A DNA stretch of 64,000 nucleotides from an uncultured Planctomycetota bacterium (GCA_963823665.1 CAWGMQ010000008.1:288001-352000); one strand, 5' to 3'; counted from the first letter of the stretch, positions 36,001-59,464 are shown. A program made the numbers and translations. Notes: generated by a model from the letters alone, not told the origin.

Positions 36001-39000
36001 CGGTACGCCGGTCGAGCAGGTGCGCATCACGCAGCAGCTCGACCCCAACCTCGACCCGCGCAGCTTCCGCCTGGGGGACCTGCAGCTTGGCGACCTCTCG
36101 ATCCAGATCCCCAGCGGTCTGGCCACGTTCCAGGGCGACTTCGATTACACCGAATCGAACGGTTTCATCCTGCGCGTCAGCGCCGGCATGGATCTGGACA
36201 CCGACACGGTCACCTGGCTCTTGCAGGCGATTGACCCCAACACCGGTGAGGTGCTGCAAAGCGCCACCGAGGGGCTGCTGCTGGCCGGCCAGACCGGCTT
36301 CGTCGGCTACACCATCGAGCCGCTCGCCGGTCTGGCCACCGGCACGCAGATCAGTGCCGACGCCACCGTGCTGTTCGACAACGCCCCGCCCATGGACACC
36401 GGAACGCTGACCCAGACCATTGACGGCACCGCCCCGACCACGACCTTGACTGCGACCCCGCTCACGCCCGGCAGTTCCAACTACCAGGTCACCTGGAATG
36501 CCGTGGATGATGCAGGCGGCTCCGGCGTCGCCAGCGTGACGGTCTACGTCGCCGAGGATGGCGGCGATTATCAGATCTGGCTCGACCAGACGCAGGACAC
36601 CACCGACGTGTTCCAGGGAGACCCCGGCCACACCTACCAGTTCCTGGCGCTGGCCACCGACAACGCCGGCAACATGGAGCAGCCGCCCAGTGGCGTTTCC
36701 ACACCTTCCGACGGCTCGCAGCCGAACCTGGGCGCGTTGCCCACCGTGCCCCAGACGCCGACCAATGTGCCGCCGGCCCCGCCCACGCCGCCGGTCACGA
36801 CCAATACGCCCAATCCGCTGTTCACCCAGGCGCAGCAGGGCATTCCATCGTCCCAGCCAGCCGGCAACCGATCGGAGTTCACGACCGTCCTGGCGCCGTT
36901 CCAGGCCGAGGCGTTCGCCACGGGCATCGCCCAGAGCCATGCCAACATCGGCCCGATGGCCATCGTCGTACTGCCCGATGGAAGCGTGCTGATCAGCGGC
37001 GGGCCCGATCGCAACGAGTTGTTCCACCTATCCCAGGAAGGCGGGGCCGTCGGGCGCCGCTCGCCACCCTGCCGTTCCCCATTTACGACATGGCCCTGGA
37101 TGCGCAAGGCAACCTGTGGGCGGCCACCGGCGGTGGCCCGCTGCTGGAAGTTGACCCGGCCACCGGAACCGTCCTGGGCCAGTTCGGCGATAGCCTGACG
37201 CAGGCACTTGCCATTGATCCCGCGTCGGGCCTGATCTACGTTTCCTCGGGCCAGGGCGTCGAAGTCTTCAATCCGGCCACGTCGAGCTTCACGCACTTCA
37301 GCGACTTGCGCGTCGGCAGCCTGGCGTTCAACCCCGCCGACGACAGCCTGTGGGCTGCCTTGTGGCCCGTGGATCAGGGCGACATTATTCGCTTCGACTC
37401 AAGCGGCCAGGCCGAGAAGATGCTGGAGTTCAGCGACGCCGTCAATTCCATCGCCTTCGGCCAGTCCTCGAGCGTCCTGGCCGGCTTGCTTTTCGTAACG
37501 CACGACCAGGACGCCGCCAACCCGACGGGAATTGGCAGTATCATCACGGATTCCAATCCTGCCTACGGGCCCACCGAACTGACCATGGTCGACCTGGCCA
37601 CCATGCAGACGCTGGCGGTGGCCACCGGCGGCACGCGCGGCGATGAGATCACGACCACGCCGGATGGCCGGGTGCTCTTGAGCCAGTCGCTCCAGGTGGA
37701 CGTGCTCGGCCCGATCGTCGCCCCGCGCGTCCTCGCCGTCGATCCACCGCCAGGCGCCGTCGTGGCCTTGCCGCTGGGCAGCATCAGCGTCAGCTTCGAC
37801 CAGGACATGCTGGCCGACAACGCCGCCGATCCCAGCTCGGTGCTCAACCCGAACAACTACGTGCTGGAAGGCAATTCGGCGGGCTATGTGCCCATCATTT
37901 CTGTCACGTACGACGCGAGCACCCGAACGGCCGTGCTGACTTTTAACGCGCTTGCCGCCGACCAGTACTCCCTGCGTGTGCTCACCGGCATGCGCAGCAC
38001 CGAGGGGATCAACCTGGCCCAGGAATACGACTCGACCTTCCTGGCCACCGCAGACCTCTCGTCGGTCATCAACCTCCAGTTCGGACTCTCCCGCAGCGAT
38101 CGCGAGACCGGGACGGTCTCCTTCCTGGTGACCATCACCAACACCAGCACGCACGACCTGCTGCTGCCGGTCGTCCTGCACCTGACGCCCGTGAACCAGT
38201 ACCCCGGCGAGCCGCAGGGCAACGAGGGCAGAGCCCCGGACGGCTCGTGGCTGATTGATCTGAGCGGCGATTTGCCCGCGAGCGGGATCCTGGAACCAGG
38301 GCAGAGCTCCGCCGGCCAGACAATTACCATCGATTCCCCCAATGGCACGCCGGTCGCGTACGATCCGTGGGCCAGCGGCGTGCTCGCCGGCAACGAGGCC
38401 CCGGTCTTTGTCACGAGCCCCGTGACCACGGCAACGGTGGGACAAGAGTATCAATATCAGGCGATTGGTTTTGATCCCGATGGCGACCAGCTCAGCTACC
38501 TGCTCGACGGCGGCCCCGCGGGAATGACGGTCGATCCCGCAACGGGGCTCCTGACCTGGACACCGACCCTCTCCAGCCCGGCTCTGGCCCAGGTGGTGCT
38601 GCAGGTCTACGACTCCTCGGGCACGCCCGCGACCCAGGCTTTCATCGTCCAGGTGCCGGGCGTGAACCCGCCGCCGGCGTTCAACGGTTTGCCGGCCGAG
38701 GTGGATGGCAAGGAAGGTGCGCCTCTGACCCTCGTGGTCCATGCCACCGATCCCAGCGGCGACCTTCTCGCGTACTTTGCCTCCAACCTGCCGCCGGGCG
38801 CGGCCTTCGACCCGACCCAGCAGACGTTCTCGTGGACGCCGGCTTTTGGAGCCGCCGGGACCTATCCCGACGCCGCGTTCACCGTCAGCGACGGCGTGAA
38901 CCAGGTGACTCAGGATGTCACCTTCGTGATCGCCCCGAACCCACAGCCGCCAACCCTGCTGCAACCGTCGCAGACCACCGGCGAGGAAGGCTCGCCCCTC

Positions 39001-42000
39001 CATATTCAGCTCCAGGCCACCGACTTGGGCGACAGCGCGCCGCTCGTGTATTCCAGCACGGACTTGCCCGCCGGTGCGAGTCTGGACCCGAATACCGGCC
39101 TGTTCACGTGGACGCCCGACTATACGCAGCATGGCATCTACCAGGTGGCGTTCACGGTCAGTAACGGACAGGCCAGCGCGACGCAGACGGCCGCGATCGT
39201 TGTGTTCAACGTGAACGCGCCGCCGGTGTTCCAGAATCTGCACGATTTCCAGGTGCTGGAGAACCAGCAGCTCGAGTTCCTGGCGATGGCGTATGACCCG
39301 AATAACCCCGGCTTCGTCGCGCCGACCCTCGACGCGAACGGAACGGTTGTGCCGGGAGACGGCACGCCGGCGACCGTCAGCTACACGGTCAGCGGGCTGC
39401 CGGCCGGAGCGACGTTCAATCCCACTACGCTGCTTTTCGACTGGACGCCGACCTATGAACAATTCGGGCCCTTCAATGTGACGTTCACGGCCACCAACAA
39501 CGGTGACGGCACCGGCGTGGATTTCGAGCGCGTCGGCGACCGTCACGGTTACCGTACTGCCGGTGGACCGTCCGCCGCAGCTCACGCCGATCCCCGACCA
39601 GTCGGTCCCGGGCGGCGCCACGCTGGCCGTGCCTGTCATCGCCACCGACCCGGACGCGGGCGACAAGATCACGCTCACGGTGACCGGATTGCCCTCGTTC
39701 GGCACCTTCACCGACCTGGGCAATGGCAACGGCAGCTTCCAGTTCGCACCGGGGCTCGCCGACAAGGGCAACTACACGATCACGGTGCAGGCAACCGATG
39801 ACGGCAAGGACGGCCTGACCGCGCCGCAGTCCACCCAGGAGAGTTTCGTTCTGGCCGTGCCGGTGGCCAGCGAGCCGCCGCACCTGGACTACGTCGGCGA
39901 CAAGGTGGCGGTCATCGGCAGCCCCTTCCAGTTGACCTTGCAGGCCACCGACCTGGACCAGCAGCCGCTCTCGTTCACAGCCATCGGCTTGCCGGCCGAC
40001 GCGACTCTCTTGCCCAGCTCGATCTACGGCCAGGCAAGTATCAACTGGGTGCCGACGGCCGCCGACGCCGGCGTGTACGGCGTCACGTTCGTGGTCACCA
40101 ACACCGGCAACGGCAATCCTGCCCTGGTCGCCTCCGATCAGCAGACCATCCACCTGGTGGTGCGCACCTCCAATCAGGCCCCGGTGCTGCAAGATCCCGG
40201 GACTCAAACCGTCGCCGAGGGCCAGACGCTCACAGTCAACTTGTCGGCCACCGATCCGGACGGAGACCCGCTGACCTACTCCGTGGCCAATCCGCCCCCC
40301 GGATCGACGTTCGACCCGGCTCACGGTATCTTCACCTGGAAAACCAACCTGATCCAGGCAGGGACATATCCGGACGTGGTATTTGGTGCCAGCGACGGCA
40401 ACAAGACCGCGCTCCAGACCGTCACAATCGACGTCACCGAGACGGACCAGCCGCCGGTCCTGCTTCCGGTCGGCACCCAGACGGGCCGCGAGAACGCTCC
40501 GGTGCAGTTCTCGTTGGCCGCGACCAGCCCGGACAACGACCCGATCACCTTCAGTGCGGCCACGCCGTTGCCCTCCGGCGCCGCGCTCAACCCGCAAACG
40601 GGGCAATTCAACTGGACGCCCGACTACACCCAGTCCGGCAACTACACGGTCACCTTTGCCGCAACCGTTCCCAGCGGTCTGAGCGATACCACGACCGTGT
40701 CCATCCAGATTGCCAACGTCGACCGGCCGCCAACCATCCAGGTGGCCGACCAATCGGTTCTGGTGGGAGTGCCGCTCAGCTTCACCGTCCTGGGCAGCGA
40801 TCCGGATGTGGGCGATGTGCTCTCCTATTCGGCCACCGGCCTGCCCGCCGGGGCCAGCCTGAACCCGAATACCGGCGCCTTCACCTGGACGCCGAGTGCC
40901 GGTCAAGCCGGCGTTTACCCGGTGGTCTTTTCGGTCTCTGACGGCCAGTTGTCGGTGTCGAAAACGGCCGTGATCGATGCCCTCCTGACCAGCCAGGCAC
41001 CGACCGTCACGGTTGAGCTGACGCCCAGCTTTCCGGCGGTGCCGGGCCAGCAGGTCCTGGTTCACGTCAGCGCAACCGGCGTGGCGGCCATCGCGAACTT
41101 GACCCTGACCGAGAACGGTCAGCCTGTGACGCTGGACGCGCAGGGTCGCTATTTCTACACGGCAACCACACCGGGACAGATCACGTTCAACGCGACCGCG
41201 ACCGATGTGGACGGAAATGTCGGCCAGGCCAGCACCGTGGTTCTGGTACGCGATCCCAACGACACCACCGCACCGATGGTGTCGCTCGATCCGGGCTTGA
41301 GTGGCATCGTGCTGACGGCGGCGACGAACGTTGTTGGCACGGTCGCCGACAGTAACCTGGATTCCTGGAGCTTACAGATCGCGCCGGTCGGCAGCTCGGA
41401 CTTCACCACGCTGGCGACCGGCAGCACGCCCGTGGCGAACGCGGCGCTGGCGACCATTGACCCCGGCTCGTTCTTGAACGGCGTCTATCAGCTTCAATTG
41501 ACGGCGACCGACATCGCCGGGCGGACCAGCACGGTTCAGACGACCCTGGAGGTCGACACGGCCACCAAGCCCGGGCAATACCTGCGCTCGGAAACCGATC
41601 TGACAGTCCAGCTTGGCGGCGCGACGGTCGACCTCACCCGCGTCTACGACTCACTGAATCGCAACACGTCGTCCTCGTTCGGCTTTGGCTGGAGCCTGGC
41701 CGTCGAGGACACGAACCTTCAGACCAGCGTGCCGCTCACGGGCAATGAATCCGAGGGCATCTTTAACCCCTTCATCTCGGGCACGCGCGTCTACTTGACG
41801 CTGCCGGACGGCCAGCGAGTCGGTTTCACCTTCACGCCGCAGCGCCACGACCAGACCGGCATCACCTGGTACACGCCCGCCTACACCGCTGATCCCGGCG
41901 TCGACTGGCAGCTCAGCTCGGCCAGTGCCGTCCTGATCCGGGGAGGCAACGGCTTCTACAGTGCCCAGACTGCGCTGCCCTACAACCCGGCCAGCGGCCA

Positions 42001-45000
42001 GTTCGGCGGGCCCCAGTACACGCTGACCGGCCCGGATGGCACGGTGTATCAACTGAGCGCCTCGAGCGGGGTGGTGCAAGAAAACCTGCCGGGCGGCCAG
42101 ATACTTTATTTTAGCGGCAGCGGCATCACGAGCTCCACGGGCGACGCGGTGCGGTTCATCCGTGACGCCGCCGGCCGGATCACGACCATCGAAGCGCCGA
42201 ACGGTGCGCAGGAAGTCTACGAGTACGACGCCCAGGGCAATCTCGTCGAAGCGCACAACACCGTTTCTGGCCAGAGCAGCAACTACGGCTACGCAGCCGG
42301 TGACCCGCACCTGCTGACGCTGGCCACCGCCTCGGCCACCGGCAGCGGTGCTGCCGTGTTCTACGGTCCCACGGTGCAGGTCGTGCCCCTGACTGCCAAC
42401 CTGGGCGGCACCAGTCAGTTCCTGGCCGGGAATTTTGCTGGCTCGCTGACGGCGGGCGCGACCGACTCGTTCGCCTTCCTGCTCACGGCCTCGGAAGTCG
42501 CCTCGACCAGCAACGGTACCGTACTGGTGGGAATCGACATCCAGGCTGCTTCCGGCAGTGCGGTGCAGCCGGCGGTACCGGCCATTGCCGGATTGACCAC
42601 CCTGGTCCAGCATACCGGCTCGGGCAGCGCCTTTGGCCTGTTTGCGATCAGCCGCGCAGGGTTAGAGCTGCTCCAGTTTGCGGGCGGAAGCGCGAGCACG
42701 GCGGGCGGGTACACACTGCAAGTGTTCATCGCAGGTGACGCCAACCAGGACGGGGACGTCAATGGTGCCGACGGCACGCTGGTCGCCGGTCTCGTCGGCA
42801 CGAGCGCCGGGCAATCAGGTTACATCCTGGCGGCCGACGGCAACCGCGACGGGGTCATCGACGCGGCCGACGTGCAGCTTGTGGCCGCCAACTTCGGCTT
42901 CCGGGCGACCCAGCCGCCGGTGGTCCAGGCCGGCGCGGTCATGACCCACGCCGGTCTGCCGGTCCAGTTTAACCTGGCGCCGCTGGCGACCGATCCGCAG
43001 GGCGAACCCGTCTTCTTTACCATCGTCGGGGCCGTCAACGGCACGGCGACGCTCAACCCCGACGGCAACACGGTCACGTTCATCCCAGCCTCCGGTTTCA
43101 CCGGCACTGCTCAATTCCAGTTCGAGGCTGATGACGGCCAGGAGGTGTCGACGCCGGCGACAATCACGGTGACCGTCAGCGCCGCGCCGCTCTTGAGCCT
43201 GGATTTCCAGACCCGCGAGCCGCGGCTGGGCTTGGGCGGCGGCACGCAGATCGTCGCGGTCGGCAATTTCGCGGACGAGCAGGGAGTGGTCCTGGACCCG
43301 TCCTACGTGAGCTTCCAGTCGACCAATCCCGCGGTGGCAACGGTAACGCCGCTGGGCGCGCTGGCCGGTCTGAGCGACGGAACGAGCATCCTCATCGTTT
43401 CCGCCCAGGGTTTGCAGGCCGAGACCGCCGTCACGGTGGGGCCCGTCACCAGCTTATCTCCTCTCGACCAGACGCTGTACAACGAAGGCATCAATACCTA
43501 CCCGCTGGCGGTGGCGCTGAGCGCCCTCGGCGGCACGCGGCAGTTCGACGTACATCCGGTGGGCGACATCAACCTGACGACGGACCTCAGCACGGCCAGC
43601 TCGGGCACGCAGTATTTTGTCAGCCCTCCCGGCATCGTGACGATCACGCCCGACGGGCTGATGTCCGCCGTGAGTCCCGGGCAGGCGACGGTGACGATCA
43701 TCAACGGCCCGGCCGAGACCGTCATCCCCGTGCTCGTGCAAACGCCCCACACCGGCACGGTGACGGTTGGCGCCGGCGGTGGCGTGGTGGAAGGCAGTGA
43801 CGGATCGATCGTCGCGGTCCCGCCCGGCGACCTGGCCACCGCCACGCCGGTCAGCATCACCCCGGCGACAGAGGCCAGCCTGCCCCAGATCTTGCCCGAC
43901 GGCATCACCTTCGCGGGCGCGTTCAACCTGAACATCGGCGACTCGGGTGTCAGCGTCCCCGTGCAGCTCGCCATCCCGGTGGCTCCGGGTACGCCGGTGG
44001 GCACGACCGTGTACTTCTATCGGGCCGGGCAATTCTTGAACGCCGACGGCACGACCCAGCCGATCTGGTGGCAGGTCGAGTCCGGAACGGTCGAGTCCAA
44101 CGGCATGGCCTACACGCACTCGCCGCCGGAACAGGGAGTCGCCAACAGCGGCTACTACCTGTTGGGCTACGGCACGGAAGAACTGTCCGACTTCGAAATG
44201 GAGCTCAACCAGGATCAGATCGAAGGCGCGGAGGCCGGCCAGCTCGACGTCAGCGTTGCCATCGACGGCGCCAACGGCTCGCTGACGGGGGCGATGGCAT
44301 CGGTGGACGAGAGCGACATCGATGCCACCCTGGCCGTGCCGGCCGAGCCCGAGCCGACGCCCGTCGTCATTTCCATCCTGGAGCAGGCTTCGTTGCCATC
44401 GATCACCACCTACGACGTTCAGCTCGAGCCCGGCCAGGTCAGCACCTTCTCGTCGTCGATCACCGTGCCGCCGCCGCTCGTCGTGAACGCCCCGAAGATC
44501 GACAATGTCTCGCTCGCCGGCACCACGCAAGCTCCCGAAGTCCAGATCGACGGCTCCGGTTTCGTGAGCGCGACCAGTTCATTGCCGCTAGAGGTCAATT
44601 TTGAACTGGCCAACGGTCAGACGATTATGGCGACCGCCGGCCAACCCGGGAACCCCGACCAGTTGACGCTTCCCGTGCCCGACGGAGTGACCCTGGGCAT
44701 CAGCCAGATTACCGTGTTGCTGCCCAACACGGTTTACGACCCCGACCCCAGCGCACTCAACGGTTCCATGGCGAGCGTCCAGTATATCGGCAGTAACCCG
44801 GCCCAGTTCAATCCGGCCGGCAATTACACCTTTGTGGCCTTGCCGGAGGGCAACAGCGGCGGGGGAGCGCTGGCGGTGCTCGACAACGATTCGACCGACG
44901 TCAATTCACCCAGCAGCGACTTTGGCAACGTCCTCACGGAAATCCCGCTCGGCACCAGCGAGCAACCCACGTCCCCACGCGATGTGGCCATCACACCGGA

Positions 45001-48000
45001 CGATAGCCGTGCCTATGTCACCCTGGAAGGGTCGGGGCAGGTCGCGGTCGTTGACACCATCACGCTCCAGGAAGTGAATGTCCACCCCGGCAATTCAGCC
45101 GCCGCGACGGCCAGCACTCAGTCGATTCCCGGGCCCGTGACCCTGGACCCATCCCTGAACCTGACCCAGATCACCGGCCCGACCGCCATTCGCGGCACCA
45201 TCACCGACGTGCCCGGTTTCGACCACTGGTCTCTGCAGCTAGGTCAATGGACCAGCACGTTCACACCAGTCGAGGGCATCCCGAGCCTCCCGAACGGATT
45301 GATACCGCTCGCTGCAGGCATAAGCAGTTCCTCGTCGCAATCGAGCGAAGTCCTGGCCAATCTCGATCCCACGGCACTTGGCATTCCGAATGGTTTCTAC
45401 GTGTTGCAGTTGACCGCCTTTGACGCGAACAACGACGCCATCGGCCAGCCGAGTCAGGTCTTGATCGGCGTGGACGCCAAGAGCACGGTGATCGACCTGC
45501 CGCTGGGCGCCGAACCTTATGGCATCGCCATCGATCCTCAGGGGAATTACGCCTACGTCGCCGACGCGCGGCCTTACGCCGTACCGGACGACTACGTGGC
45601 TCCCGAGGGTAACGTGGCTCCGCCGCCGGGTTCGCCGATGTCCCAGGTGTATGTCATCGACATCAACCCCGCCTCGCCAACGTACAACCAGGTCGTCGAG
45701 ACGATTCAGATCGTCGTGTCCGGACTACTGCCGGATGGCAGCGGTTTGCCGAACGTGGTCGGCGGCGTGAACGGCTTGATCGCGCCTGACGGCTTGCAGG
45801 AAATAACGGTCAGCCCGGATGGCAACCAAGTGGACGTGGCCGCCCCCAACTTCAGCCCCGATCCCAACGGTGGACCGTATGACGAGCTCGACGGCAATCT
45901 CATCGAGATCAACCTGACGACCGTAGGTAATTTTAAGCCCCCCACGTACAGCGTGATCGCGATCCCCGGGGGTGAGGGGACCTTCGGCGTGGCGGTCGCA
46001 CCGACGCCTGACGCGTCGCAGTCAGGTGAACCGCCCACGTACCCGGTCGCCTTCACCAACCCCGAGTCAGACGCCACGGGAGTCGAAGTGGTGGACCTGG
46101 CCGCCGACACCAAGACCGTGATCCCGCTCGATCTGGATCCAGCCGACGACCCCAACAACCCCTTGTACGATACGGTTCAGGATAACCCCGACTACTCCGA
46201 CGCCACCTATCTCGAAGCCCACAATGCCGGCGGCATTGTGTTCTACACGGCGCCGAATGGCACCCTTTTCGCCTTCGTGGCTGGGCGTGCCGATCAGGTG
46301 ACCTCGGTCGTCGGCGGCGGATTCGACGGCGACAACTTGAGCGCCTCAGTGGTCAGTGGTTACCTCGATCAGGATCAGAATCCGCTGTACGAAGACGGCA
46401 ACGTCGCCATTATCGAGAACCCCCTCGGCAATCCCACGGGCGATGTCAATCAGCGGCCGGTGGTCGTCGCGGCCACCCGCCCGGTTCCGTACGGCTATCC
46501 GGTGGACCTGGCCCTCACCCCGCCCGACGCCTCAGGTAATCAGTACCTCTATGTCAGCTACCAGGGACTGCCCACCGCGAGCGTGACCGGTTCAGGAACT
46601 TCTTTTGGCCTGGGTGCCGTGTTCGTCTTCAACGCCACGGCCATGATCGAAATGGTGACGACGCTGTCGCAAACGCAATCCGGCAGCCTGATCCTCGATC
46701 AGGTTCCGGTCGACAGTATCACGATGTTGGCGGACGGCGATTATGAAGAGGCGGTCAACACGACCATCGACGTCAGGGCCGCGTACGCGCAATATGACGC
46801 CCAGTTAACCGATTCCGACGGCAATCCGATCACCGAGGAGGTATTCGGCGTTCCTCCCGACGATACCGCCAACGCCCCGATCGCCACCGGCGGCTTCCCC
46901 GGCGGCATCGCCATCGAAACCGGACCCGCACCCGAGATCACGGTGCTTCAACCCACGCCCGTCGCCAGCGGCGGCAGCAGCACCATCGAGCTCGTAGCGA
47001 ACAACATCATTCAGATCACCACCACGGTGGACTCGATCAACAAGAGTGTATCCACCAGCGGCGGAACGTTTGATTTTTCGCTCGACACTCCGGCGGTGGT
47101 CACCCTCTCAATCCAGGACTCGACCACGGACGAAGACGTCGACGTCGAAAATATTCCAGATCCAACTGGCGGGAGCGAAGATTTCCAGGACGGAATATCG
47201 CTGACCGCGGGCACTTACAAAACTACCCTGGCGAGCCTTGGCGGACAGGAGACGCCGGGAACCTATGACTTTAGCCTGACGGCCACGGCCGCGAATGGAA
47301 AATCCACGACGGTCACCGGAACGATCATTCTCACATTCCAGGAGAATGCCAGCCTGCCGATCGGCCATACCATCATCGACGGCGTGGACATCTTCGACGG
47401 CCACTTGACCGTCTCCAGCACGGACGTCACGATTCCCGGGCGCGGGTTGGACCTGGATTTCACCCGCACCTATTCCAGCTCCGGCAACTCAAGCGCCGGG
47501 CCGCTCGGTGCCGGCTGGACCGACAGCTACAACGTCCAACTTGTCCAGAACAGCAGCGGCACCTACACCATCATCGGCGGCGACGGCAGCGGCAACACCT
47601 TCAGCGCCGCCTCGCAGTCCAACCCCACGCTGGCTCAGGAATTCGGCCTGCCTGCTGCCGATTGGAACGCCGCCCGCTTCTACGCGCCCCAGGTGGGCTA
47701 TCACTCGACGCTGGTACAACCCAACCCGGAACAGGACCCGACGAAGTTCTATTTCTACACGACCGACCACACGCTGTACGACTTCGAGCTGCAGCCCGGT
47801 CTGTCGGAGTCGCAGTCGGTCTACACCCTGCGCTACATCCAGGACTCGAACGGCAACCGCGTCAGCCTGTACTACAGCGACGACCCGACCGGTGCGCTCC
47901 CGGCAGACCCCAATCTGCAGGCCGATCTCAACGGGCCTCCGCTCACCTTGGCTGTAATCGAAGACTCCTCCGGCCGCGCTCTGGTTCTTACGTATAGTTA

Positions 48001-51000
48001 TATTGCAAATTCTTATCGCATCGTGCAACTCACCGGCTACGACCCGTCCGGCAGCAATTTGCTGGGGCTGGCGGTTGATTACGGCTACGACCAGTGGGGC
48101 AATCTGACCAGCGTCGTTCGTGTCGACCCCACAACGCCCGGCGACGTTCTTCAGAAAGAGAGCTACACCTACTCTCCCGGCCTGGGCGTCACCGGGCACA
48201 ACCTGCTGACCTATACCGCTCCCGACGGCTATGACGCGCACGGGGCCCCAGTCAGCGGGGGATCCAATCCGACTGCTGCCTTCGGCCTGGATATCGGCGC
48301 CGACGCGAGCGGCGACGGCGATTTCACCACGACCTATACCTGGTATAGCCTCGACGCTCTAGGCAAGCCAATCGTGGGGGAAGGCTTCGTCACGTCGAGT
48401 GACGGTATCAGTGCTTACACCGGTGGTTATTCTTTGCTGCCGTCCGGCTTTGCGCAGGTTCCCGGCTATAGCCAGTTCTTCGGCGTTCCCCTCTACGAGA
48501 TGGTTGAATCCGTGACGCAGCCGGGCGGAGTGACGAATGTCAGCACGCCCGATTCGTTCTCCACCATCACCTTTACGTACAACACGGACGCAGGTACGCG
48601 GGTCGTGACCAATCCGAACCCGACCATGATCCCGCCGACGACGTACACCGTGGACAGCTACGGCGCCACCACGGAAATCGATGCCCCGACAATTGCGAAT
48701 CAGGGCCCCAACATCACCAAAATGACCTGGGCGGACCCGGCTTCTCCTGATCCGGCCGCCTTTTGTGCTGTCGATGGCGCGCTCACCGCAAATGAATTGC
48801 AGGGCATCGATGTGGAAATGGTCTCGGAAACAGACGCCGAGGGCCAGATCACCTCGTACGTCTACGATGTCAACGGCAACATCGTGAAGACAACGATCAG
48901 CTTCGCGGGCATGAATGGTTCGACGTATCTGCCGGTCACCGAGGCCGATGGAACCACGCCGGTCGCCGGTAACGACGTCGTCACCAGTTACACCTACGAC
49001 CCCATCTTCAACGTGATGACCAGCGAAACGGACGCCGACGGCCACACAACGTACGATATCTACGACAGCACGTATGAGCAGATGAATTCGACCCAGCCGA
49101 CCGGGGCCCGGCCGCCCGGCTTCACGGGTCACGACACGGGCAACCTGCTCGAAACCATCGATGCCGTCGGCGATACGACCACCTACACCTACGCGACCGT
49201 CAGTGCCTACAACGGTACCGACGGACCGGGCGACTTGACGTCCGTTACAGACCCGCGCGGCCTCGTGACGACCTACCTGTCCTACGACGCTTACGGCAAT
49301 GCCACGAACATTGTCGATGCCAACGGGAACTACACCACGCAAACGTTTGACGTGCGCAGCCGGATGACCTCGCAGACAACCTTCGGCACGCAGACCATCT
49401 CGGGCCCGACCACGGTTTCTCCCGTCGACGCCGGCGGGGTCGCTCAGTCGACCACCGTCTACGTCTACGACGGCCTGGACCGAGTGGTTCGCCAGGTGGA
49501 GATCGACGACCTGGACCCGGCAGATAACGCGTTCTCGCGGCCGCAAGATTCAGGCTTGCCGGCAATGACTCTGCTTGGCGGCGAGGTGGCCCAGGCGACG
49601 AGCACCGTGCTGTCTCAAACCACGTGGGCCGAAGAGACCATCAACCAGTACCTGCCGGGCGGCCAGCTTGCGGAAACCATCAACGGGCTGGGATTGGTGA
49701 CCCAGTACCAGTATGACAACGGCAACCGAGTCCTCGTGGAAACCCAGAGCGGCTTCATGCTGGCGCCCAAACCGGTGCCCGTCCCGGTGGCGACGCAGTA
49801 CGTGACCACGTATGCCTACGACCAGAACAATAACGTAACGCAGGAAACCGATCCGCGCAAAATCACGACCATGTACTACTACGACAACTTGAATAACCTC
49901 TACCGCACCGACGTATACTCGGTGCCCGGCCAGAACGAAATGACCGAGACGACGTTGACCAGCTATGACCTTGTAGGCAACAAGCTCACCTCGTCCGACA
50001 TTCACGGCAATGTGACGACCTACGAATACGACCGTCTCTATCGCCTGGTAGCGACGGTGTTACCCGTGGATGGGCCGACACCAGGCCTGGCCGCCAAGGT
50101 CACGACGGCATACGACCCCGTCGGCAACGTGGTCATTCAGACCGACGCCAACGGCAAGGCGACCATCTCGGTGTACGATAACGCGAACCGACTGAAAATC
50201 CAGACCGACCCCCTGGGTAACGAGATCGAATACACTTATGATCAAGACGGCAATGTCACCCTGGAGGTTCACGAAAGCCCTCTAGACGAAACGCCCGAAG
50301 GTCCGAACAAGGGCGGCACGGACCAGGTCACTTCTGTTGTCTTCAACACGTACGACAATCTGAACCGTCCCCTCGAGATGGACCAGTACGTGGTTCTTGG
50401 CGACCCGACGGTCCTGGGTTCCCCGCCGATCCCAGCGGGGCCGGCAGGACACACCTCGATCGGCACTGACCAGGCAGTCTACGTGACGGCCTACCAGTAC
50501 GACGACCGTGACAACACGGTGCTCACCACGGACCCGCGCGGCAAAGAAACCCTGGACCAGGACGATGGACTCGACCGTCTCGAAAGCGAAATCGTGGACG
50601 ACGGCATCGGCGGTCTCAAGCTCAAGACGACTTACACGTACGACGCCGACGGTAACCAGGCTTCCGTGACGGACCCGACGGGCAGCACCACGGCGTCGCT
50701 CTATGACGGGCTGGACCGGCTGATCGTCACCACCTATCCAAAGCTGAGCAACGGTGTGCAATACACCGAGATGTACTATTACGACGGTGACAACTACCAG
50801 ATCGCGTATATTAACCAGCGCGGCATCATTTTCACCACCGGCTACGATAACCTCAACCGCGTGGTCGCCCAGAACGTCGTGGAATTTAGCGGAGTGCTGC
50901 AAACACTCACCGCCACAACGTACGACGACAAGGGCGTGCCGGCCGGCGCGTACATGACCTACAGCGTGACCGTGACCGACGCGAACGGCAACCCGACCAT

Positions 51001-54000
51001 CACGACCTACGACGGGCTCGATCGCCCGCTGCTCGTGACCGAGCCGGCCGTGCTGATAACCGACGCTTCCGGAAACTCAGAGTTCGTCAACCCGACGATC
51101 ATTTCTACCTATGACGGCGTGAACTTGCTGAGCCAGATTGATGCGAACGGTAACAAGACGGTCTTCGGCTACGATGCCGATAACCGCGTTATCGAAACGC
51201 AAGAATACGACGAATCCGAAGCGCTCCAGGCCACGACCGTTGACGTGTACAACGATGCCAAGAACCAGGTTGTCGAGGAAGGCCCGCGGACCGACGCCGG
51301 TGCCCTGATCGACACTATCACGCAGAACGATTCCCTGGGCCGCGTGATTTCCCAGTCCGTCGAAAACCTGTCTCTGTCCAGCGAGTACGGCACCAGCGTG
51401 GTTACGCTGGTCCAGAACCAGTACGACGGCGACGGCAACCTGATCGCGACCACCGACGCCGACAACAACGAGACCACCTACACCTATGACGGCGCCAACC
51501 GGCAGATCAGCATGACCGTGGCCGCCAATACCCCCTCGGTCGCTGCCACCACGAACTACGCTTACGATGCGGCCGGCGATTTGATCGCGGTTCAGGGGCC
51601 GCGCATCCACGCCGCGCCGACGCAGCCCTTCCCGCAAGATCCCAACAACCCAGTTCCCACCGAGTTCATCAACTATTTCGACGCTTACTACACCTACGAC
51701 GCCATGCACCGCCAGGTCACCGAAACCGACGGCGCGGGCGACACCACCTATCAAACCTACGACGGCGACAATAACGTCGTCAGCACAAAGACTCCAGATG
51801 GCAACATCACGACCTACACCTACGACGAGTTAGACACGCTGACCTCAGTGAACGAAAGCGCGGAAGGCGGCGGAATCACTTACTACGTTTACGACGCGAA
51901 TCGCAACAAGATCGCCCAGCAGGACGCCAACGGAAACCTGGTCACTTACAAGTACGACGCCTTGAACCGGCTCACGGACACCTACCAGTTCTTGACCCCG
52001 GGCTTTTTGCACGGCACGCTGGAGGGTTCCTCGCTCTCCGCGAGCGAGCTTTATCCGTCGAATCCATCGCCCACCTTGGTGATCCACTGGCAGTATGGCT
52101 ACGATGCCGACGGCAACCAGACCCTGGTCATCGACCCCAAGGGCCAGCAAACCCACATGGCCTATGACTTCCGCGACCGCCTGGTCTCGGTAGCCTACAC
52201 CAATGCCGCGGATCCCAGCCTCGCTTACCAACCGCTTTCGATCACGTACCAGTACGATCTGGACGACAACCTGACGCAGGCCACGGAAACGGAGACCGGC
52301 CCGTCCACCGCGGACATCACCGAGCAATACGTCTACGCCTACGATGCGCTCGACCGTCTGACCCAAACCACCCGGCACGACGACCTCGGTGCCAGCGATG
52401 ACATCGTGACCTACATCGGCTACACCTACGATGAGCAAGGCAACCTCAAGAGCGAGACAGTCCCGGCCGCCAACAATCCGCTGCCGACGGGCCCGCCGAT
52501 GCCCAGTACGATCACGACCACCTACGATTACGATGCCCAGAACCGCCTGACGGCGGTACACACGGGGTCGGGCACGACGAGCTACGCGTACTTCCCCGAC
52601 GGCCTGGTCGCCTCGATCCAGTACCCCAACGGCGTCGTCGCCGATTCGAGCTACGCCAATTCGTATGACGCCGCAGGCCGGTTGACCCTGCTGGTGAACC
52701 ACACCGGGCCAGCCGGAACGGACCCGTCGACCACGTCCCCGGCCTTCATTTCCAGTTTCCAGTACACCTACGATGCCGACGGCAATCGACTGTCCCAGAT
52801 GGAGGCCCACTCCTGGCCCACCAGCACGACGAACGAGCTGGTGCGCGAGGAAACGACCTACACCTACGACCAACTGGATCGGCTAAGCTCTGTCCAGTAC
52901 GTCAGCCTCCAGAACGGCGTGAGCGCCGGCCTGTCTTACACCTATGACGAGAACGGCAATCGCCTGAGCGAAACCGGGTTCGACCCCAGCAACCCGTCTC
53001 AGCCGGTCAACCTGACGTACGCCTACAACCGACTCAATGAGTTAATGAGCATCACCAATCATGTGGATGCCTCGCAAAGCACGGCGTTCACCTACGACGC
53101 CAACGGCAACCGGACGATGGAGACCATCGGCCAGTTCGACACCGGCACCGACGGCAACGGTAATCCCGTAGTGATGATAGTCGGGAACGCCAGCAGCATG
53201 ACGCCCTACTTCTACAACCTCAACGATGAGCTGGTGAAGACGACCGACGTCGCCAACGGCGGCGTGGTTACGTTCGACTATGACTACACCGGCACGCGCG
53301 ACAAGATGATTGACTCGACGGGCGACACCCGCTACCTCTACGACGGCAGCGGCAATCTGGTGCTGGAATACAACGGCGCAAGCGACGCGACGGTTTTCAG
53401 GTACAACTATGGCCTGGCGCTGGTTTCGAGCGTGGACGCTAGCGCCAGGCGCAATTCTACCTGTTCGATGCGTTGGGCAGCGTATCCGAACTCACCAACC
53501 TGACGGGACAGCTCGTCGCGGAAGGCATGCAGTACGATGCCTGGGGCAACGTGATTCAGTCTTATGCCGGTGGTTCCAGCCCCGTTGGATTCACCGGCCA
53601 GCTTGCTGACACGGATACCGGGCTCGACTACTTCGGGGCTCGCTACTACGACCCAAGCACCGGGACGTTCATCACCCAGGATAGCTACCTTGGTCAATCC
53701 GATACGCCGATAACGTTGAATCGCTATTTGTATGCCGCCGCCAATCCCTTGGCCAATACTGACCCGACGGGACATGCGGACGCACCTCAGAATCCCGCGA
53801 ACTGGGTCGAATCCGACCCTACACCGAGTACTTCACCCAATGCCGCACCGTCGGGACAATTCAACGTTACGGCTGATAATCCCCCGAACTGGGTCGAACT
53901 CGACGCGTCAGCGAATCCCGCACCCGGCGCCACTGGAAACGCGACTGAATCGTCAAACAGTCCTGGGACAGCCGTTGGACAGCCGGTCGCAAGTGCCGCC

Positions 54001-57000
54001 GAGCAGTTGAAGGATGACTTTGGCATCGATGTCAACGATCCCTTCTGGAAGTGGAACCCCAAGCTCCAGGACGCATTGGCTCAGATCCAGCAGACTGCCT
54101 TGGAAAAGAACATCCAAGGTATGGAGTGGTCCGCCGAAAATCTAGATAAATACGGCGGCTTTGGTACCGTACCAGGCCCTTCACTGCTTGCCGTATCGGA
54201 TAGTCCTTCTGGCGGCTCAGGTATGGAACACATGGCCACAGTCGGCGCTGGTTACGCGTATGCGGCCACTGGGGATAAAGATTTCAGTTATGCGGTTGGT
54301 CAAGCCTCACAATTCACGTTTGAAGTTGCCCAGGCCGCCCAGGGCACGGAAGAGGCGCGCTTCGCTAATGAGGCAGTTGGCTCTGCCTCCCCACTGACAT
54401 CCGTAGCGGCAAGTCCTTCACGCGAAGCGGCAAGTATAACGCCCGCAGAGGTTCCAACAGAAAGCGAATTGCACTCCCTGGTCGACATGTTGGAAGGTGC
54501 GCAGAGTGGTGTTCACATTTCCATGCCAGCTTACAGGCCTAATTCTCCGGACAGCAATTTCGCGGTAAGCAATGTTAATGCTGTTGATGCTTTCAAACTC
54601 GTTAGTCAAGAGTATACGACGGTAGGTAAGCCAGGTGGTGATGTCTGGCTATCGCCCGGAGTGGATTTTCCCAGTCAGACAAACGTCGAGGAGGTTCAGC
54701 GTCTAACTGGCAGGGCGCCGAGCATAACGCCGGACTTTAATGCCGCCAGTTACCCCGAAAACGATGATAAATCAGGCGTTGGGATTTATAGAGTGCTAAT
54801 TCCGTATGAGCTCGCGACGCTATCTACGCCGACCGAGGGCACCGCTGTCGATTTCTTGCAGGGCGGAAACACGGCTGTCCGTGGGCAAGACTTTTACTTG
54901 GTGAATCCTACGAGAGAATATACCTCGCCCAGCATTGATGTTGTCCCAGAAATGAGGTTACAACGACTTTCCCCCTCTCCACTCGGAGAATTCGGAGCGC
55001 CACATGGTTGGCAGAATGTCAATTTCAATGTTCCGAATCCTACCACGGTACGGCAAACGGGGTCGGTAATCCAAACTGATGTAGGGAACGAGTCCGGGAG
55101 CGAGATTGATCCTGAGAATCTTGATGACGCTCTTGAGCAGCAAGTGTGGGCTGACAGCCTCGGTACCCAACTGGTCCTCTCTACCAAGATCGAATTTACT
55201 ACGCTACCGGTTGGCGAACTTGGTGAATCCATAATCACCGAGATTAGTCCCGCTGGTCTGCCGACCGCAGGGACGATCCTCCTGAGCGCGAATGCCTTGG
55301 GTCTGGGCTGGTTCTTCGATCCGACGCAACAGGGCAACGCCGAATTCAGCCAGCAGGCCGGCCCGTATTCTTTTCAGGCAACTCCAGGCTCGCCGGCCGC
55401 GGGTAAGTACGATCTGGAAACCGTGCTGCTGCACGAAATCGGCCACTTGCTCGGCATCGATCCGCAAATCCCGGGTTTTGTGGCACACGTCGGCATGGTC
55501 GCCGGGTCCGCAGTGTTCGCCGACGGCGGAGTCTCGGCAACCTTCGTGCCGCAAGCCGATGACCTCGATCCGAACCTGTATCCCAACGACCTGATGAGCC
55601 TCGACCTCGCACCCGGCGAGCGACGTCTTCCTTCGGCGCTGGACGTGCAAATCATCGACGCCGTGCGCAGCACGTCGCTGGCCGAGATCGCCAGCGGGGT
55701 GATCAGCAATGATGCACAGGCAACATCGGGCGCGCCCGGGAGCTCCGCATTTCCAGGATCGTCCCAGCCGGCACGGCTGGGCGCCTGGGACGACGACAAC
55801 ATCATCAACGGCAACTTCGCCATCACGGATCCCACCGTTCCGCAGTTCGGCTGGACCGAACGCGGCTCCGTCACGGTCACGGGCGGCCAGGGAGTGTTAT
55901 CGGAGAACCCGAATGTCTTCAGCGAGCTGGCGCAGAGCTTCACCATCCCTGCCAATGTCACCGCCTTGCGCTTCACGGTGTATTCCCAGTTCAGCGACAA
56001 CCTGATCGGGCCACCCGATGCCTTCGAGGCGGCCCTGCTCAACACGGACACCGGCCAATCGGTGGTCAGCGCGCCGACGGGCTTGACCGACACCGACTCG
56101 TTCTTCAACCTCCAGACCTCCGACCAGACCTTCTTCAGCCCCGAGACGCAGGTGGTCGGCGTTTCGACCTCCGGCGACACGGCAACCCCCGGCTCGCCGC
56201 TGGTCGTCACCGTGAGCCTGGCGGGAGTCGCCACCGGTACCGAGGTCACGCTCGACCTGGACCTGCTCGGCTTCGGCCCGGCCGGTAGCCAAGTCGAAAT
56301 CGCCAACGTGCAATTTCTCGGCCCCCAAGGCAACCACGCTCCGGTCGCCAATCCCGACAGCTACACGACGCAGGAAGGCTCGCCCCTGCAGACCACTGCC
56401 GCGATCGGCGTCCTGGCCAACGACACCGACATGGAGAACGACCCGCTCACGGCCGTGTTGGTGAGCGGCCCGGCCGACGGCACATTGACCCTGAACGCCG
56501 ATGGCTCCTTCCTCTATACGCCGGGCGCCGGTTTTACCGGGACAGACACCTTTTCTTACGAGGCCAGCGATGGCCAGTTGCTCAGCCAACCGGCCACAGT
56601 GAGCATCCTCGTCAACGGGAATCGCAACGGCAAATCGAATCAAACGATCACCTTCGGTTCGCTGGCCGACCAGACCTACGGCGTTGCCCCGATCACCCTG
56701 AGCGCCACGGCGAGCTCAGGCGATCCTGTTTCTTTCAGCGTCATCTCTGGCCCGGCGACTGTCGTGGGCAACCTCCTGACCGTGACGGGCGCGGGGAACG
56801 TCGACGTGGAAGCGTCCCAGGCAGGAGACAGCAATTACAATGCGGCCCCCGTGGTTGATGAATCCTTCACTGTGGCGACGGCGCCGTTGTCCGTTACGAC
56901 CCAGGGCGCCAGCCGGGCGTACGGCACGGCCAACCCGTCGTTCGCCGTCACGTACTCGGGCTTTGTGAACACGGACGGTCCGGCTGCGCTCGGCGGCACG

Positions 57001-58701
57001 CTGACCTTCACCACGGCTGCGAGCGCTTCGACGGGCATCGGCCAGTACGCGGTGACTCCCGGCGGTCTTACGTCCGCCAATTACGCGATTGTGTTCGATT
57101 CCGGCATGCTGACGATCATCCAGGCGATGCTGACCGTCACGGCCACCGGCGTGGACAAGGTCTACGACGGGACCACCGCGGCGGAGGTGACCCTGTCCGA
57201 CAACCGCATCACGGGCGACATCCTCACGGTCAGCTTCGGAAACGCCTCGTTCGCCGACAAGAATGTCGGTACCGCCAAGACCGTCACCGTCAGCGGAATC
57301 ACAATCTCGGGCACGGATGCGGACGATTACGCGCTGCAAGACACCACCTTCACCACAACCGCCAACATCACCCGAGCGCCGCTCACGGTCAGCGCTGCCG
57401 GCGTGAACCGGGTCTACGACGCCAACACCGATGCCACAGTCACCCTTTCGGACAACCACCTCGGCAGCGACTCAGTCAGCGACAGCTACGGTAGCGCCTC
57501 GTTCGCCGACGCGAACGTGGGTACCGGCAAGACCGTGACCGTGACCGGCATCACGATCTCCGGCACGGACGCGGGCAACTACACGCTGCAGAACACCACG
57601 GCCACCACCACGGCCAACATCACCCCGGCGCCGACGACAGTCGGCGTCTCCGCTCCGAGCCCGTCCACGTACGGACAGTCAGTGAGTTTCACGGCCACGG
57701 TCACTTCAAGCGTGTCGGGCACCGTGCCGGCGAATTCCGTCCAGTTCCTGATCGACGGCGTCGACTTTGGGCCAGCCGTCTCGCTTGTCAGCGGCGTGGC
57801 CACCAGCCTTTCGATCGCGACGCTTGGCGCGGCCAGCCACGTGATCACCGCAGACTACCTTGGGGACCTGGACGACTCGCCAAACTCCGGAACCGGCACG
57901 CAGGTCGTGAATCAGGCCCCCTTGTACGTCACGGCCTCGAACTTCGACATCGCCCACGGCGACGTCATCCCGACACTCACGGACACGATCACGGGATTCA
58001 TTTCCGGCGAATCGTCGGGAAACGTCACGATCACCGGCTCGCCCGCCCTCGCCACGACGGCCACGAGCACCAGCCCGGCGGGCCGCTACGCCATCACGGT
58101 GAATTCCACGGGCATGTCCGCTGCAAACTATACTTTCGTGCCCGTGAACGGCACGCTCACCGTCCACCCGAAGGTTCTCGACGTGATCGTGCTATACGGC
58201 TCGCGCTCCATGTCGATCGAGAACCTGACGAGGGACCTCCCCTTCAGCGACATCAGCGCGATCGAGATTCTCTTCAGCGACAACGTCACGGCGACGGGCA
58301 GCTCGGCGACCCTGAAGAGCTCGACCTCGTCCGGTACCTTGTACAACCTGGGCACCTTCGGATACACTTCATCGAGCGACGAAGCGAAATGGACCCTTCC
58401 CTCGGCGCTGGGGATCGACAGGTATCTGTTGAATCTGGACAACACACTTGCGGCGGCCGTGGACCATACCATTAACATCATGGGCACGACGTCGTGGAAC
58501 TTCTCCGTGTTGCCGGGCGATTTCGATGGCGACGGGATCGTCGGAACCGCCGACCTTACCGGCGTCCACAGCCAGATGCCGCAATACCTCGGGACCACTC
58601 AGACGGCTTCGGTGTGGGCAGATATTAACGGAGACGGCGTCGTCGATGTGAACGACTACAACCTGGTCAAGAAATACTTGAACACAAAGCTCCCCCCGTG
58701 A
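17960..58701 (+). CDS. Giant (~13,580 aa) LEPR-XLL/CARDB/Ig/Rhs/dockerin surface protein, split into 6 frames by 5 small indels
   Basis: GGAG RBS at 17951 and ATG at 17960. Junctions at ~18073 (-1), ~21266 (-2), ~37053 (-1), ~39525 (+1) and ~53444 (-1) each fall inside a motif that reads through once corrected. Corrected length is 40746 nt = 13582 codons. Confidence 0.85.
18780..23850 (+). repeat. Tandem 768-bp (256-aa) Gly/Ser/Thr-rich beta-helix-like repeats, 6 full units plus a partial 7th
   Basis: NFSTGSSV marker at 18796, 19564, 20332, 21100, 21866, 22634 and 23402 (spacing 768, once 766). Confidence 0.95.
24170..24840 (+). other. LamG/concanavalin-A-like domain
   Basis: ALTFNGTSDYVQVP, TYEAWIY, GRWYYVAGTF, QIYINGNL, FNGLI...VWN, GLVAYF. 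Confidence 0.85.
25260..25935 (+). other. Two Calx-beta/cadherin-like Ig domains
   Basis: Twice GGTA.FTV.L...P.ANV...L.SSNTSAG..SP..L.FTPQNWN..Q.VTVTGVND. Confidence 0.7.
25945..34320 (+). repeat. About 21 CARDB domains, with near-identical 402-bp units at 27140-29150
   Basis: Repeated (Y)PDLQV...V.W...N.G...W.D...E..E.NN; YPDL at 26738, 27140, 27542, 27944, 28346, 28748 and 29150. Confidence 0.9.
36900..38050 (+). other. NHL-like beta-propeller followed by an SbsA/Big_5-like Ig domain
   Basis: PMAIVVLPDGSVLIS, DMALDAQGNLWAAT, ALAIDPASGLIYVS, SLAFNP; then APRVLAVDPP...ISVSFDQDM. Confidence 0.65.
38392..40990 (+). repeat. About 9 putative Ig (He_PIG/cadherin-like) domains
   Basis: Repeated N.PP...ATDPDGD.L.YS...LP.GA..DP.TG.FTWTP. 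Confidence 0.85.
41575..42330 (+). other. Short, incomplete Rhs N-terminal (DUF6531-like)/YD block
   Basis: ETDLTV...LTRVYDSL...FGFGWSL; RDAAGRITTI, YEYDAQGNL; ends after about 3 repeats. Confidence 0.7.
42734..42898 (+). other. Internal dockerin-like domain
   Basis: Two Ca-loop repeats: GDANQDGDVNGAD ... ADGNRDGVIDAADVQLVAANFG. Confidence 0.85.
44820..46920 (+). other. YVTN/YncE-like beta-propeller with insertions
   Basis: PRDVAITPDDSRAYVT, PYGIAIDPQGNYAYVA, ITVSPDGNQVDVA, PVDLALTP. Confidence 0.75.
47350..53775 (+). other. Full Rhs/YD shell: DUF6531-like start, many YD repeats, Rhs-associated core
   Basis: DVTIPGRGLDLDFTRTYSS...GPLGAGW; dozens of Y.YD..GN/R repeats; YDAWG, GFTGQ..D.DTGLDYFGARYYDPSTGTFITQD...NRYLYAAANPLANTDPTGH. 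Confidence 0.95.
53776..55100 (+). other. Variable, lower-GC toxin-like segment after the Rhs core, in frame with downstream domains
   Basis: Abrupt rise in A/T-ending codons after DPTG; no stop codon; globular-looking region ending FLQGGNTAV...NPTREY. Confidence 0.65.
55100..55670 (+). other. HExxH metallopeptidase-like (matrixin-like) domain
   Basis: GLGWFFDPT...YDLETVLLHEIGHLLG...NDLM...PGERRLPS. Confidence 0.7.
55790..58170 (+). other. C-terminal stalk: jelly-roll-like, Big_9/cadherin-like, MBG, 2x YDG, Big_3-like and MBG domains
   Basis: NHAPVANPDSY..GVLANDTD; SRAYGTANPSF; KVYDGTT and RVYDANT with NVGT.KTVTV; STYGQSVSFTATV. Confidence 0.75.
58516..58698 (+). other. C-terminal dockerin-like domain
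   Basis: GDFDGDGIVGTADL ... ADINGDGVVDVNDYNLVKKYL. Confidence 0.88.
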
Positions 58702-58756: not shown

Positions 58757-59464
58757 ATGAGCATGCATACAGAGCATCCCGCATTTTATGGGCAAATGCG
58801 TTCACTTGTCGTCGGAATCGTGATTGCGATTCTCGTTGCCGGGATGTCCGCCCCGCCCGCTTTCGCTGACCTGGTGATCGAAGCGCCGAACGTGATCGCC
58901 TCCGCTGGCGAGACCGCCTCCTTTGACGTCCTGCTCTTGAACAATGGCTCGACCAGCTATCAGATCGCGGGAGACGCGTTCACGCTGACGGTCTCGCCCT
59001 CCGGCGTGACCTTCACCGACGCCACGACGTTGACGACGACCGCTACCTACATCTACCAGGCCTCCTCCGACGTGGACCTGCCCACCACGCTGTACGACTC
59101 GCTCCCAGGCACATCGTTTACCGCAGCCGACACCGTGGACTTGCCGTACTTCTATCAGCAGGTCGATCCGGGCGCCACCTTCGGGCTGGCGCATGTCACC
59201 TTCTCGGTCGACCCGGGCGTTTTACCGGGCTCCGTGTTCCAGCTCACTCTGACTCCCTTCGCCGACTTTCCCGTGGCGCTCAACGATCAGTATGGAAATT
59301 ACCTTCCGTACGACGTCGAGAGCGGATCGATCACAATCGTGGCTGCGGCGGTTCCTGAGCCATCGAGCCTGCTCTTGGCCTGCGCCGGTGCGCTCTCCGT
59401 AACGGTCATCGGCTGGCATCGCACCCGTGCGGGCCGGCTCGAAGCGCAAGTTCGGCCATTTTAG
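58757..59464 (+). CDS. PEP-CTERM surface protein with a cohesin-like domain
   Basis: GAGGA RBS; signal peptide ending AFA; VPEPSS + TM helix + basic tail; mature part follows a cohesin-like strand pattern. Confidence 0.8.
   Translation: MSMHTEHPAFYGQMRSLVVGIVIAILVAGMSAPPAFADLVIEAPNVIASAGETASFDVLLLNNGSTSYQIAGDAFTLTVSPSGVTFTDATTLTTTATYIYQASSDVDLPTTLYDSLPGTSFTAADTVDLPYFYQQVDPGATFGLAHVTFSVDPGVLPGSVFQLTLTPFADFPVALNDQYGNYLPYDVESGSITIVAAAVPEPSSLLLACAGALSVTVIGWHRTRAGRLEAQVRPF

Follow-up and report, generated by a model that had tools for sequence, protein, structure and literature searches.

Polymorphic toxins are defined, in PMC3482391, as proteins in which the toxin is the C-terminal-most domain. 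Such toxins are mined by the domain that stands last in the chain. The locus described here raises the question of whether an Rhs payload can be placed inside the polypeptide instead, and of what would then become of the chain behind it. The window, by which the whole analyzed stretch of 64,000 nucleotides is meant, comes from a soil planctomycete whose 16.5 Mb genome contains 24 Rhs cores. Its features, counted from the first letter of the window, are the following:

17960..58701, + strand, giant gene of ~13,570 codons (leader at 17960, stop 58699-58701)
44303..46933, + strand, part of the host scaffold with Ig-like domains and a YVTN-like beta-propeller (TIGR02276 E 3.8e-4, below cut-off)
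47378..53472, + strand, YD/RHS shell of ~2,030 residues with DUF6531 at its start (PF05593 E 5e-97, PF20148, TIGR01643)
53533..53775, + strand, Rhs-associated core with the aspartyl autoprotease Arg and both Asp (TIGR03696 73.7 bits, cut-off 32.5)
53776..55203, + strand, exchangeable internal cassette, ~455 residues, 48 kDa, reaching to the start of the HExxH module (GC3, blastn borders)
53986..54175, + strand, helical pre-toxin-like stretch also present in the P0011 payload (blastp 30-33% over 63 residues, E ~1e-5)
54523..55010, + strand, unnamed toxin-tip domain with the conserved Glu in TREY at 54910 (relatives; model pLDDT 76.9)
55141..55677, + strand, conserved HExxH zincin-like module (HEIGH at 55432, Met-turn-like DLM at 55588)
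55792..56328, + strand, unnamed beta-rich domain, "jelly-roll-like" by look only, with no Pfam match
56332..58170, + strand, adhesin stalk (Big_9, MBG_2 x2, YDG x2, Big_3_5; Pfam)
58513..58683, + strand, C-terminal Dockerin type I (Dockerin_1, PF00404 E 5.6e-7, above cut-off)
58757..59464, + strand, next gene, secreted PEP-CTERM protein, not immunity-like (PF07589 E 1.4e-4)

Reading frame and integrity of the locus

From NPLANTDPTGH (DPTG at 53761-53772) the frame runs for 1,641 residues to the stop at 58699-58701. The original prediction had given this length of open frame, and it is confirmed: between 53773 and 55400 there is one open frame only, the other two being interrupted by 16 and 31 stops. 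In the assembly, the shell ORF (39503-53503) and the core and tail ORF (53473-58701) lie in different frames, and the break between them near 53448 had been missed. It is probably an assembly error, because an independent contig (run X2, depth 2) differs from the assembly there by a one-base indel, and the frame of the relative L032 is continuous through the equivalent site. A one-base difference from an independent contig of depth 2 was also found at 39525. Frame breaks interrupt the giant gene at five or more sites (near 18.1k, 21.4k, 37.1k, 39.5k, and 53.45k) and are probably assembly indels. In the read check proposed for 53776-55300, two pieces of the payload, 54159-54492 (run X2) and 54868-55130 (run X1), match low-depth contigs with 0 differences, and no indel is among the differences from such contigs listed between 53449 and 57613; however, the cover is thin, none of the listed pieces spans the whole segment, and X1 may be the source sample itself. 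Stronger evidence than read cover comes from the independent assemblies of P0008 (ENA) and P0009 (JGI), in each of which one protein comprises the core, a payload, and, as far as the dockerin, the tail known from the window; this supports a genuine fusion. The frame breaks and the thin cover of the payload by reads could still be taken to mean that, through a lost stop or an assembly error, a conventional Rhs toxin became joined to an adhesin gene lying downstream. This is very improbable and already largely refuted, since 16 further sequences, from different sources and assembled separately, have the same order in frame, two of these share the tail down to the dockerin, and the HExxH module has neither a leader nor a start ahead of it.

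The N-terminus of the giant gene carries the leader RRLLGLEVLE, which we take to belong to a planctomycete-type motif family. Near-identical, Thr/Gly-rich repeats of ~258 residues occupy 18163-23700 in the N-terminal part; they are beta-helix-like by look and have no Pfam match. At 41504-42600, far upstream of the main shell and ahead of an internal dockerin, a second, short stretch of DUF6531 with RHS repeats is present, and by eye a similar stretch occurs in L008 and L009.

The payload slot as an exchangeable cassette

The borders of the payload are visible at the DNA level. The GC3 value is 0.81 in the shell, falls to 0.53 in 53773-55140, and is 0.84 in the tail; in blastn, the likeness to L032 stops at 53775, with the His codon that follows DPTG, and restarts at 55204. 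Comparison with the orthologue P0008 gives the same picture for the protein. The cores are 73% identical and the tails 83-86% identical to the last dockerin residue, but the payloads cannot be aligned, that of P0008 being Hint-nuclease-like and unrelated to the one in the window.

Fifty frames or proteins that contain the HExxH module were compiled. An in-frame Rhs core lies 245-675 residues upstream of the module in 17 of them; in L032, L065, and L066 the core is in a frame adjacent to that of the module, four of the rest are N-terminally cut, and the others have no Rhs core. Among the 17 members all pairs can be aligned over the core (136/136) and over the HExxH module (136/136), and 13 of 136 over the payload. 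In a scan of 18 payloads or proteins, PT-HINT was found above cut-off in P0004, P0008, P0009, P0010, and P0017, Tox-REase-9 below cut-off in two (E 4.5e-5 and 0.011), and Endonuclea_NS_2 below cut-off in one (E 0.004), while 10 of the 18 inputs gave no toxin-type or Hint match. The ends of the Hint domains (Cys and His-Asn) look intact in the Hint members, as does, in three cases, a nuclease-like D...ExK motif. Taken together, the sequence comparisons confirm the slot as a true polymorphic cassette, swapped between the core and the HExxH module. The proposal that the Rhs toxin slot is internal is thus borne out, with ~1,190-1,200 conserved residues C-terminal of the payload. The recommended search for further Rhs cores followed by HExxH and dockerin domains returned the 17 in-frame core-payload-HExxH sequences, and P0008 and P0009 also have the dockerin. 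In wider samples, the HExxH profile was found at E<=1e-35 in at least 3 of 301 genomes of the phylum sample, all of the window's class, and at 1e-20 in at least 32 of 301 genomes of the class sample; both counts are lower bounds, at most 11 candidates per genome having been scored.

The payload domain

Behind the pre-toxin-like stretch shared with P0011, the two payloads continue with different domains. Neither Pfam nor NCBIfam contains a family for the window's payload, its Atlas matches are all below 0.8, and a second copy of its domain was not found in the same genome. A search without length restriction gave nine relatives of the toxin-tip domain (E 6e-6 to 1e-3), and a second search, started from one relative and made among proteins of 119-382 residues, raised the number to at least 56. 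They include the Rhs proteins P0033, P0036, and P0080 and one DUF6861 protein. In 51 of the 56 relatives, a count biased toward terminal forms by the limit of 119-382 residues, and in 8 of the 9 found without length restriction, the protein ends 40-60 residues past the GGxT motif; in the window 1,274 residues follow it. This position at the end of 51 of 56 relatives shows that the insert descends from a toxin tip. The relatives (P0032-P0087, at least 56 proteins) make up a toxin-tip family (GGxTA...NPTREF) that has neither a name nor a Pfam model and to which the locus points.

A late Glu (E132) is conserved in at least 90% of the 51 rows of the alignment from which the structure model was made (pLDDT 76.9). 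The model matches Tne2 with Z 5.9 (rmsd 3.1, 101 residues aligned), TreX with 5.6 (4.2, 108), EcPltA with 5.6 (4.7, 124), and SPN with 5.5 (4.2, 131), with no match at Z>=8. A second structure comparison placed SPN and Tpt1 on top; over both comparisons SPN reaches Z 5.5-5.8 and TreTu Z 3.9. Foldseek gave no match at E<=0.001, the best being E 0.22, and for the relative P0037 a TNT cluster appears at rank 13 with a score of 0.90. Middling as these scores are, nearly all the listed structure matches are proteins of the ART fold. The model therefore makes it probable that the payload domain has an ADP-ribosyltransferase/NAD+ glycohydrolase fold, in which the conserved late Glu would be catalytic. 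The ART-fold NADase toxins Tne2 and SPN and the Rhs tips TreX and TreTu give the best structure matches to the model and have a conserved late Glu in common with it, but the domain is only 6-14% identical to them, at an rmsd of 3-4 Å, and belongs to no Pfam or NCBIfam family. The window's own domain is 23-38% identical to its family and is a divergent member, with an insertion and differences at some conserved columns.

The host scaffold and comparison with known systems

The question of where the long tail comes from can be approached through relatives that have no Rhs shell. P0005 matches the pre-shell region of the window at 45.8% over residues 18-2477 of ORF-39503 (P0016: 40.3%) and the tail from the HExxH module to Big_9 at 43.8%. 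The section that separates propeller and tail is ~710 residues long in P0005 and contains an S8 peptidase; in the window it consists of shell, core, and payload, ~2,700 residues in all. P0013 and P0016 resemble P0005 in this, and in a tree of 33 HExxH modules all three nest among the Rhs-linked ones. Because these relatives keep propeller and tail without the Rhs shell, the two can be regarded as a scaffold, with an outer slot that would take the Rhs module or a subtilase, the Rhs module having in turn an inner slot for the payload. The scaffold may be older than, or independent of, the Rhs shell. Such a two-slot arrangement would explain the internal position of the payload without teneurin kinship. 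In P0019 the Rhs module as a whole is replaced by a NucA-like nuclease, which precedes the HExxH module, and by eye the L008 paralogue has Ig-like repeats and no propeller ahead of its shell. A cluster mate of P0005 is named Ca. Accumulibacter and P0013 is linked to the same name, which would place the scaffold outside Planctomycetota. Relatives of the window's protein include Urbifossiella and Gemmataceae proteins, which together with the leader motif point to a planctomycete as the source, and the database names of such proteins are RHS-repeat or tandem-95 proteins only.

With Rhs/YD-repeat polymorphic toxins (T6SS Rhs proteins such as Tse15, or the TcB-TcC shell) the window shares the YD shell, the Arg/Asp/Asp autoprotease core, the hypervariable toxin region after DPxG, and the optional Hint domain. 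It differs in that the toxin is not C-terminal-most, ~1,190 conserved residues lying beyond it, in a planctomycete leader, and in ~9,800 residues of adhesin ahead of the shell; no PAAR or TcB-type part and no downstream immunity-like gene were seen. It is a real form of Rhs polymorphic toxin in which the toxin is not terminal. Bacterial teneurin-like proteins (TLPs), as described in PMC13018210, have in common with the window the secreted adhesin domains, the beta-propeller near the YD shell, the DPxG autocleavage motif, and polymorphic payloads of ART, Hint, and nuclease types. Their payloads, according to the same source, are terminal, ~15 kDa in size, fully enclosed in the solved example, and accompanied by an adjacent immunity gene, whereas the post-core chain of the window is of 168 kDa and the FN-plug and NHL models have no match. 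In metazoan teneurins the chain runs past the shell to domains folded outside, as is proposed here for the window; however, they have no cleavage motif (stated for mammalian teneurins in PMC13018210) and a fixed tip, while the window keeps DPTG and exchanges its insert. The teneurin link that the original prediction drew from the propeller is not supported by these comparisons: the YVTN match lies below cut-off, Pfam gave no match to the teneurin NHL or FN-plug models in the pre-shell and shell region (44303-53437, E<=0.5), and the propeller belongs to the host scaffold. The propeller is also common to relatives without a shell, and membership among the teneurins was rejected. MARTX proteins carry variable effectors centrally between constant flanks (PMC2900308), as the window does, but this is an analogy only; in Pfam scans of the frames no RTX repeats and no cysteine protease domain were found, and a YD shell is present instead. 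A literature search that covered few subscription papers listed none on Rhs proteins in which the exchangeable payload is internal and a conserved tail follows, and the supplementary architecture lists of PMC3482391 may hold such proteins. The architecture is intermediate between Rhs/TLP shells, which are sealed, and the teneurin shell, which is open and uncleaved. It makes it testable how the chain enters and leaves a cleavage-competent YD shell, and also how planctomycetes antagonize their neighbors.

The HExxH module

The original prediction considered the adjacent HExxH domain as a possible source of the cut that releases the payload. In profile searches, the module gives Peptidase_M10 at E 0.0011 and NF038122 at E 1.9e-7, both below cut-off, and its match among solved structures is limited to 23 residues of karilysin (E 0.027). 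All 33 aligned copies keep the HExxH motif, and 31 of them the Met-turn-like Met. There is no His at +6 past HEIGH in the window's module, where a distant column, occupied by His in 18 of the 33 rows, has Asp. Among Rhs-linked copies (n=20), that column contains Glu in 10 and either His or Asp in 5 each, and among copies without Rhs linkage it is His in 13 of 13, eight of which come from one genus. Judging from the alignment, the column is the probable third zinc ligand, replaced in 15 of 20 Rhs-linked copies, and the replacement could mean a retuned or an inactive zinc site. Proteins that lack an Rhs core can end with the module as well, which then follows a dockerin-like, S8, or NucA-like domain. 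Self-release of the payload by the module is weakened by these two observations, the occurrence without an Rhs core and the loss of the probable third His in 15 of 20 copies. The possibility that the module serves as built-in immunity was rejected, as it stays constant while the payloads are unrelated.

Downstream of the module, the domain at 55792-56328 also exists as a separate downstream gene after L008, L063, L064, and L069 (also L066 and L014), these copies having their own leader or a PEP-CTERM end. The product of the next gene (58757..59464) is a possible candidate for a surface anchor; a model of the complex of the dockerin with the PEP-CTERM domain scored 0.29 against a mark of 0.34. 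By eye, no immunity-like gene was seen among the next ORFs, immediately downstream, at 12 loci.

Proposed release and delivery of the payload

The post-core chain has a mass of 168.5 kDa, and the largest natural Tc cargo mentioned in PMC6868009 is 35.1 kDa. Given this difference, part of the chain must lie outside the shell, even if the shell has 2,100 residues, and the earlier argument that the tail is too large to be fully encapsulated is supported. The explanation we favor, with a probability of about 0.5, is that a single autocatalytic cut takes place and the effector stays at the head of a tail that tethers or targets it. The Rhs shell-core-toxin module would sit within a giant secreted adhesin scaffold, with the payload flanked on both sides by constant sequence and, as the sequence comparison shows, exchanged through recombination in the interval that separates the core from the HExxH module. 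Autocleavage just past DPTG is to be expected from the conserved residues: the Arg and the two Asp, which PMC13018210 gives as the residues of autoproteolysis in the Rhs core, are kept by eye in 18 of 18 cores. Read directly from the sequence, this cut would free the N-terminus of the payload and leave it joined to the HExxH-Ig-dockerin tail. The 168-kDa fragment being too big for the shell, the chain may exit by a side opening, and at most the ~48-kDa payload would be shielded inside. A side cleft that holds a toxin helix is described for the Rhs effector Tse15 in PMC11461821. The effector, here a probable ART/NADase, would then stand at the head of a tail that tethers or adheres, like a toxin kept on a leash, and would be pulled out or shed upon contact with a neighboring cell, while the tail may bind the surface of the producer or the target. 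The explanation does without a second cut made specifically by the HExxH module. Several points speak against the single-cut explanation. With 120 kDa of Ig domains attached, a nuclease or NADase would not easily reach the inside of a cell unless cut once more, no immunity-like neighbor was seen, the fold match is weak, and the payload domain is divergent. That shell size predicts payload size is not claimed; the fit is loose in the seven cases compared, and in L068 605 residues stand behind a shell of 1,371 residues.

In an alternative, the core would cut on the N-side of the payload and the HExxH module, alone or together with Hint, on its C-side, freeing a small toxin from an anchored stalk in the manner of MARTX but with a metallopeptidase. 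We judge such a release by two cuts to be unlikely. It would account for the position of the module directly C-terminal of the payload in all 17 in-frame members, for the conservation of HExxH (33/33) and Met (31/33), and for the third-ligand column that is always His, Glu, or Asp, so that metal binding may persist. The Hint members keep their Cys and His-Asn ends, and a nuclease would still need a cut on its C-side; by eye, many members also have an LxA-like motif ~30 residues ahead of the module. However, the window has no clear LxA motif, the module ends proteins without an Rhs core as well, and the His is kept in all 13 non-Rhs copies but in 5 of the 20 Rhs-linked ones. In addition, the peptidases that release toxins sit upstream of the toxin in Zhang et al. 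(2012). It can also be asked whether the payload enters cells at all. It might act outside, in NAD+ or DNA breakdown at the surface or in kin recognition, or be a decaying passenger of the adhesin. The tip of animal teneurins provides a precedent, an extracellular enzyme, the subtilase, can occupy the scaffold slot, and many inserts in front of DUF7619 (see below) are short stretches of low complexity. With a pI of 4.1 the payload is acidic, and none of its segments reaches transmembrane strength (maximum 19-residue hydropathy 0.77); the divergence of the window's domain and its insertion, as well as the absence of an immunity-like neighbor from what was seen, fit the same reading. Against it, payloads have been repeatedly swapped for unrelated toxin-type domains with intact-looking motifs, and the autocleavage residues persist in 18 of 18 cores, unlike in mammalian teneurins, for which PMC13018210 reports loss of the motif. 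We regard this extracellular or domesticated role as improbable too.

DUF7619-type tails and the breadth of the class

The HExxH type accounts for three of the 24 Rhs cores of the window's own genome. Nine of the other 21 lead through a variable stretch into a DUF7619 domain above cut-off, and the genome thus has 12 internal-slot cores out of 24. The order in these proteins is Rhs core, 80-580 variable residues, DUF7619, and a tail of Fn3/Ig-like domains; the loci are L015, L017, L020-L022, L024-L026, and L029, and 14 more are found in relatives within L092-L120. The sample of the family consisted of the first 40 cores with open frames of >=1,500 residues, found among a listing of 150 of the 222 cores from 41 genomes of the same family, leaving out the own genome and the two HExxH cases already known. 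An in-frame DUF7619-like domain follows the core in 14 of these 40, as detected with our own profile, with tails of 610 to >1,944 residues, two of which end, by eye, with dockerin-like motifs. According to these sequences, Rhs cores followed by long, conserved tails are common in this family, which makes the locus less odd and the class weightier. Mining by the terminal domain would miss internal-slot toxins of this kind (12 of 24 cores in the own genome, 14 of 40 sampled in the family).

An Asp-Pro-Asn motif opens the core-linked DUF7619 in 22 of 23 cases, and the Asp-Pro bond at this border is a candidate self-cleavage site. DUF7619 is listed among the relatives of isopeptide-bond domains in 10.1101/2025.04.25.650565. 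The window itself has a DUF7619 match at ~36290, in the N-terminal part (ORF 21353-37198), seemingly without the Asp-Pro-Asn opening of the core-linked copies. A broader proposal can be built on both types, namely a large and so far undescribed planctomycete "sandwich" class of Rhs toxins in which two events would excise the payload from within a surface protein, the core acting on the N-side and an independently recruited HExxH zincin or DUF7619 on the C-side, together with a new NADase/ART family without an adjacent immunity gene. We put it forward as tentative and consider it doubtful.

Two further tails deserve mention. At L099:242-4060 (+), a core, a short insert, DUF7619, a dockerin-like repeat, and a short HExxH-type module occur in one tail, and the Rhs tail at L013:7713-9920 (-) ends with DDDCPPGMSG(N/S)-like units repeated in tandem over a long stretch.
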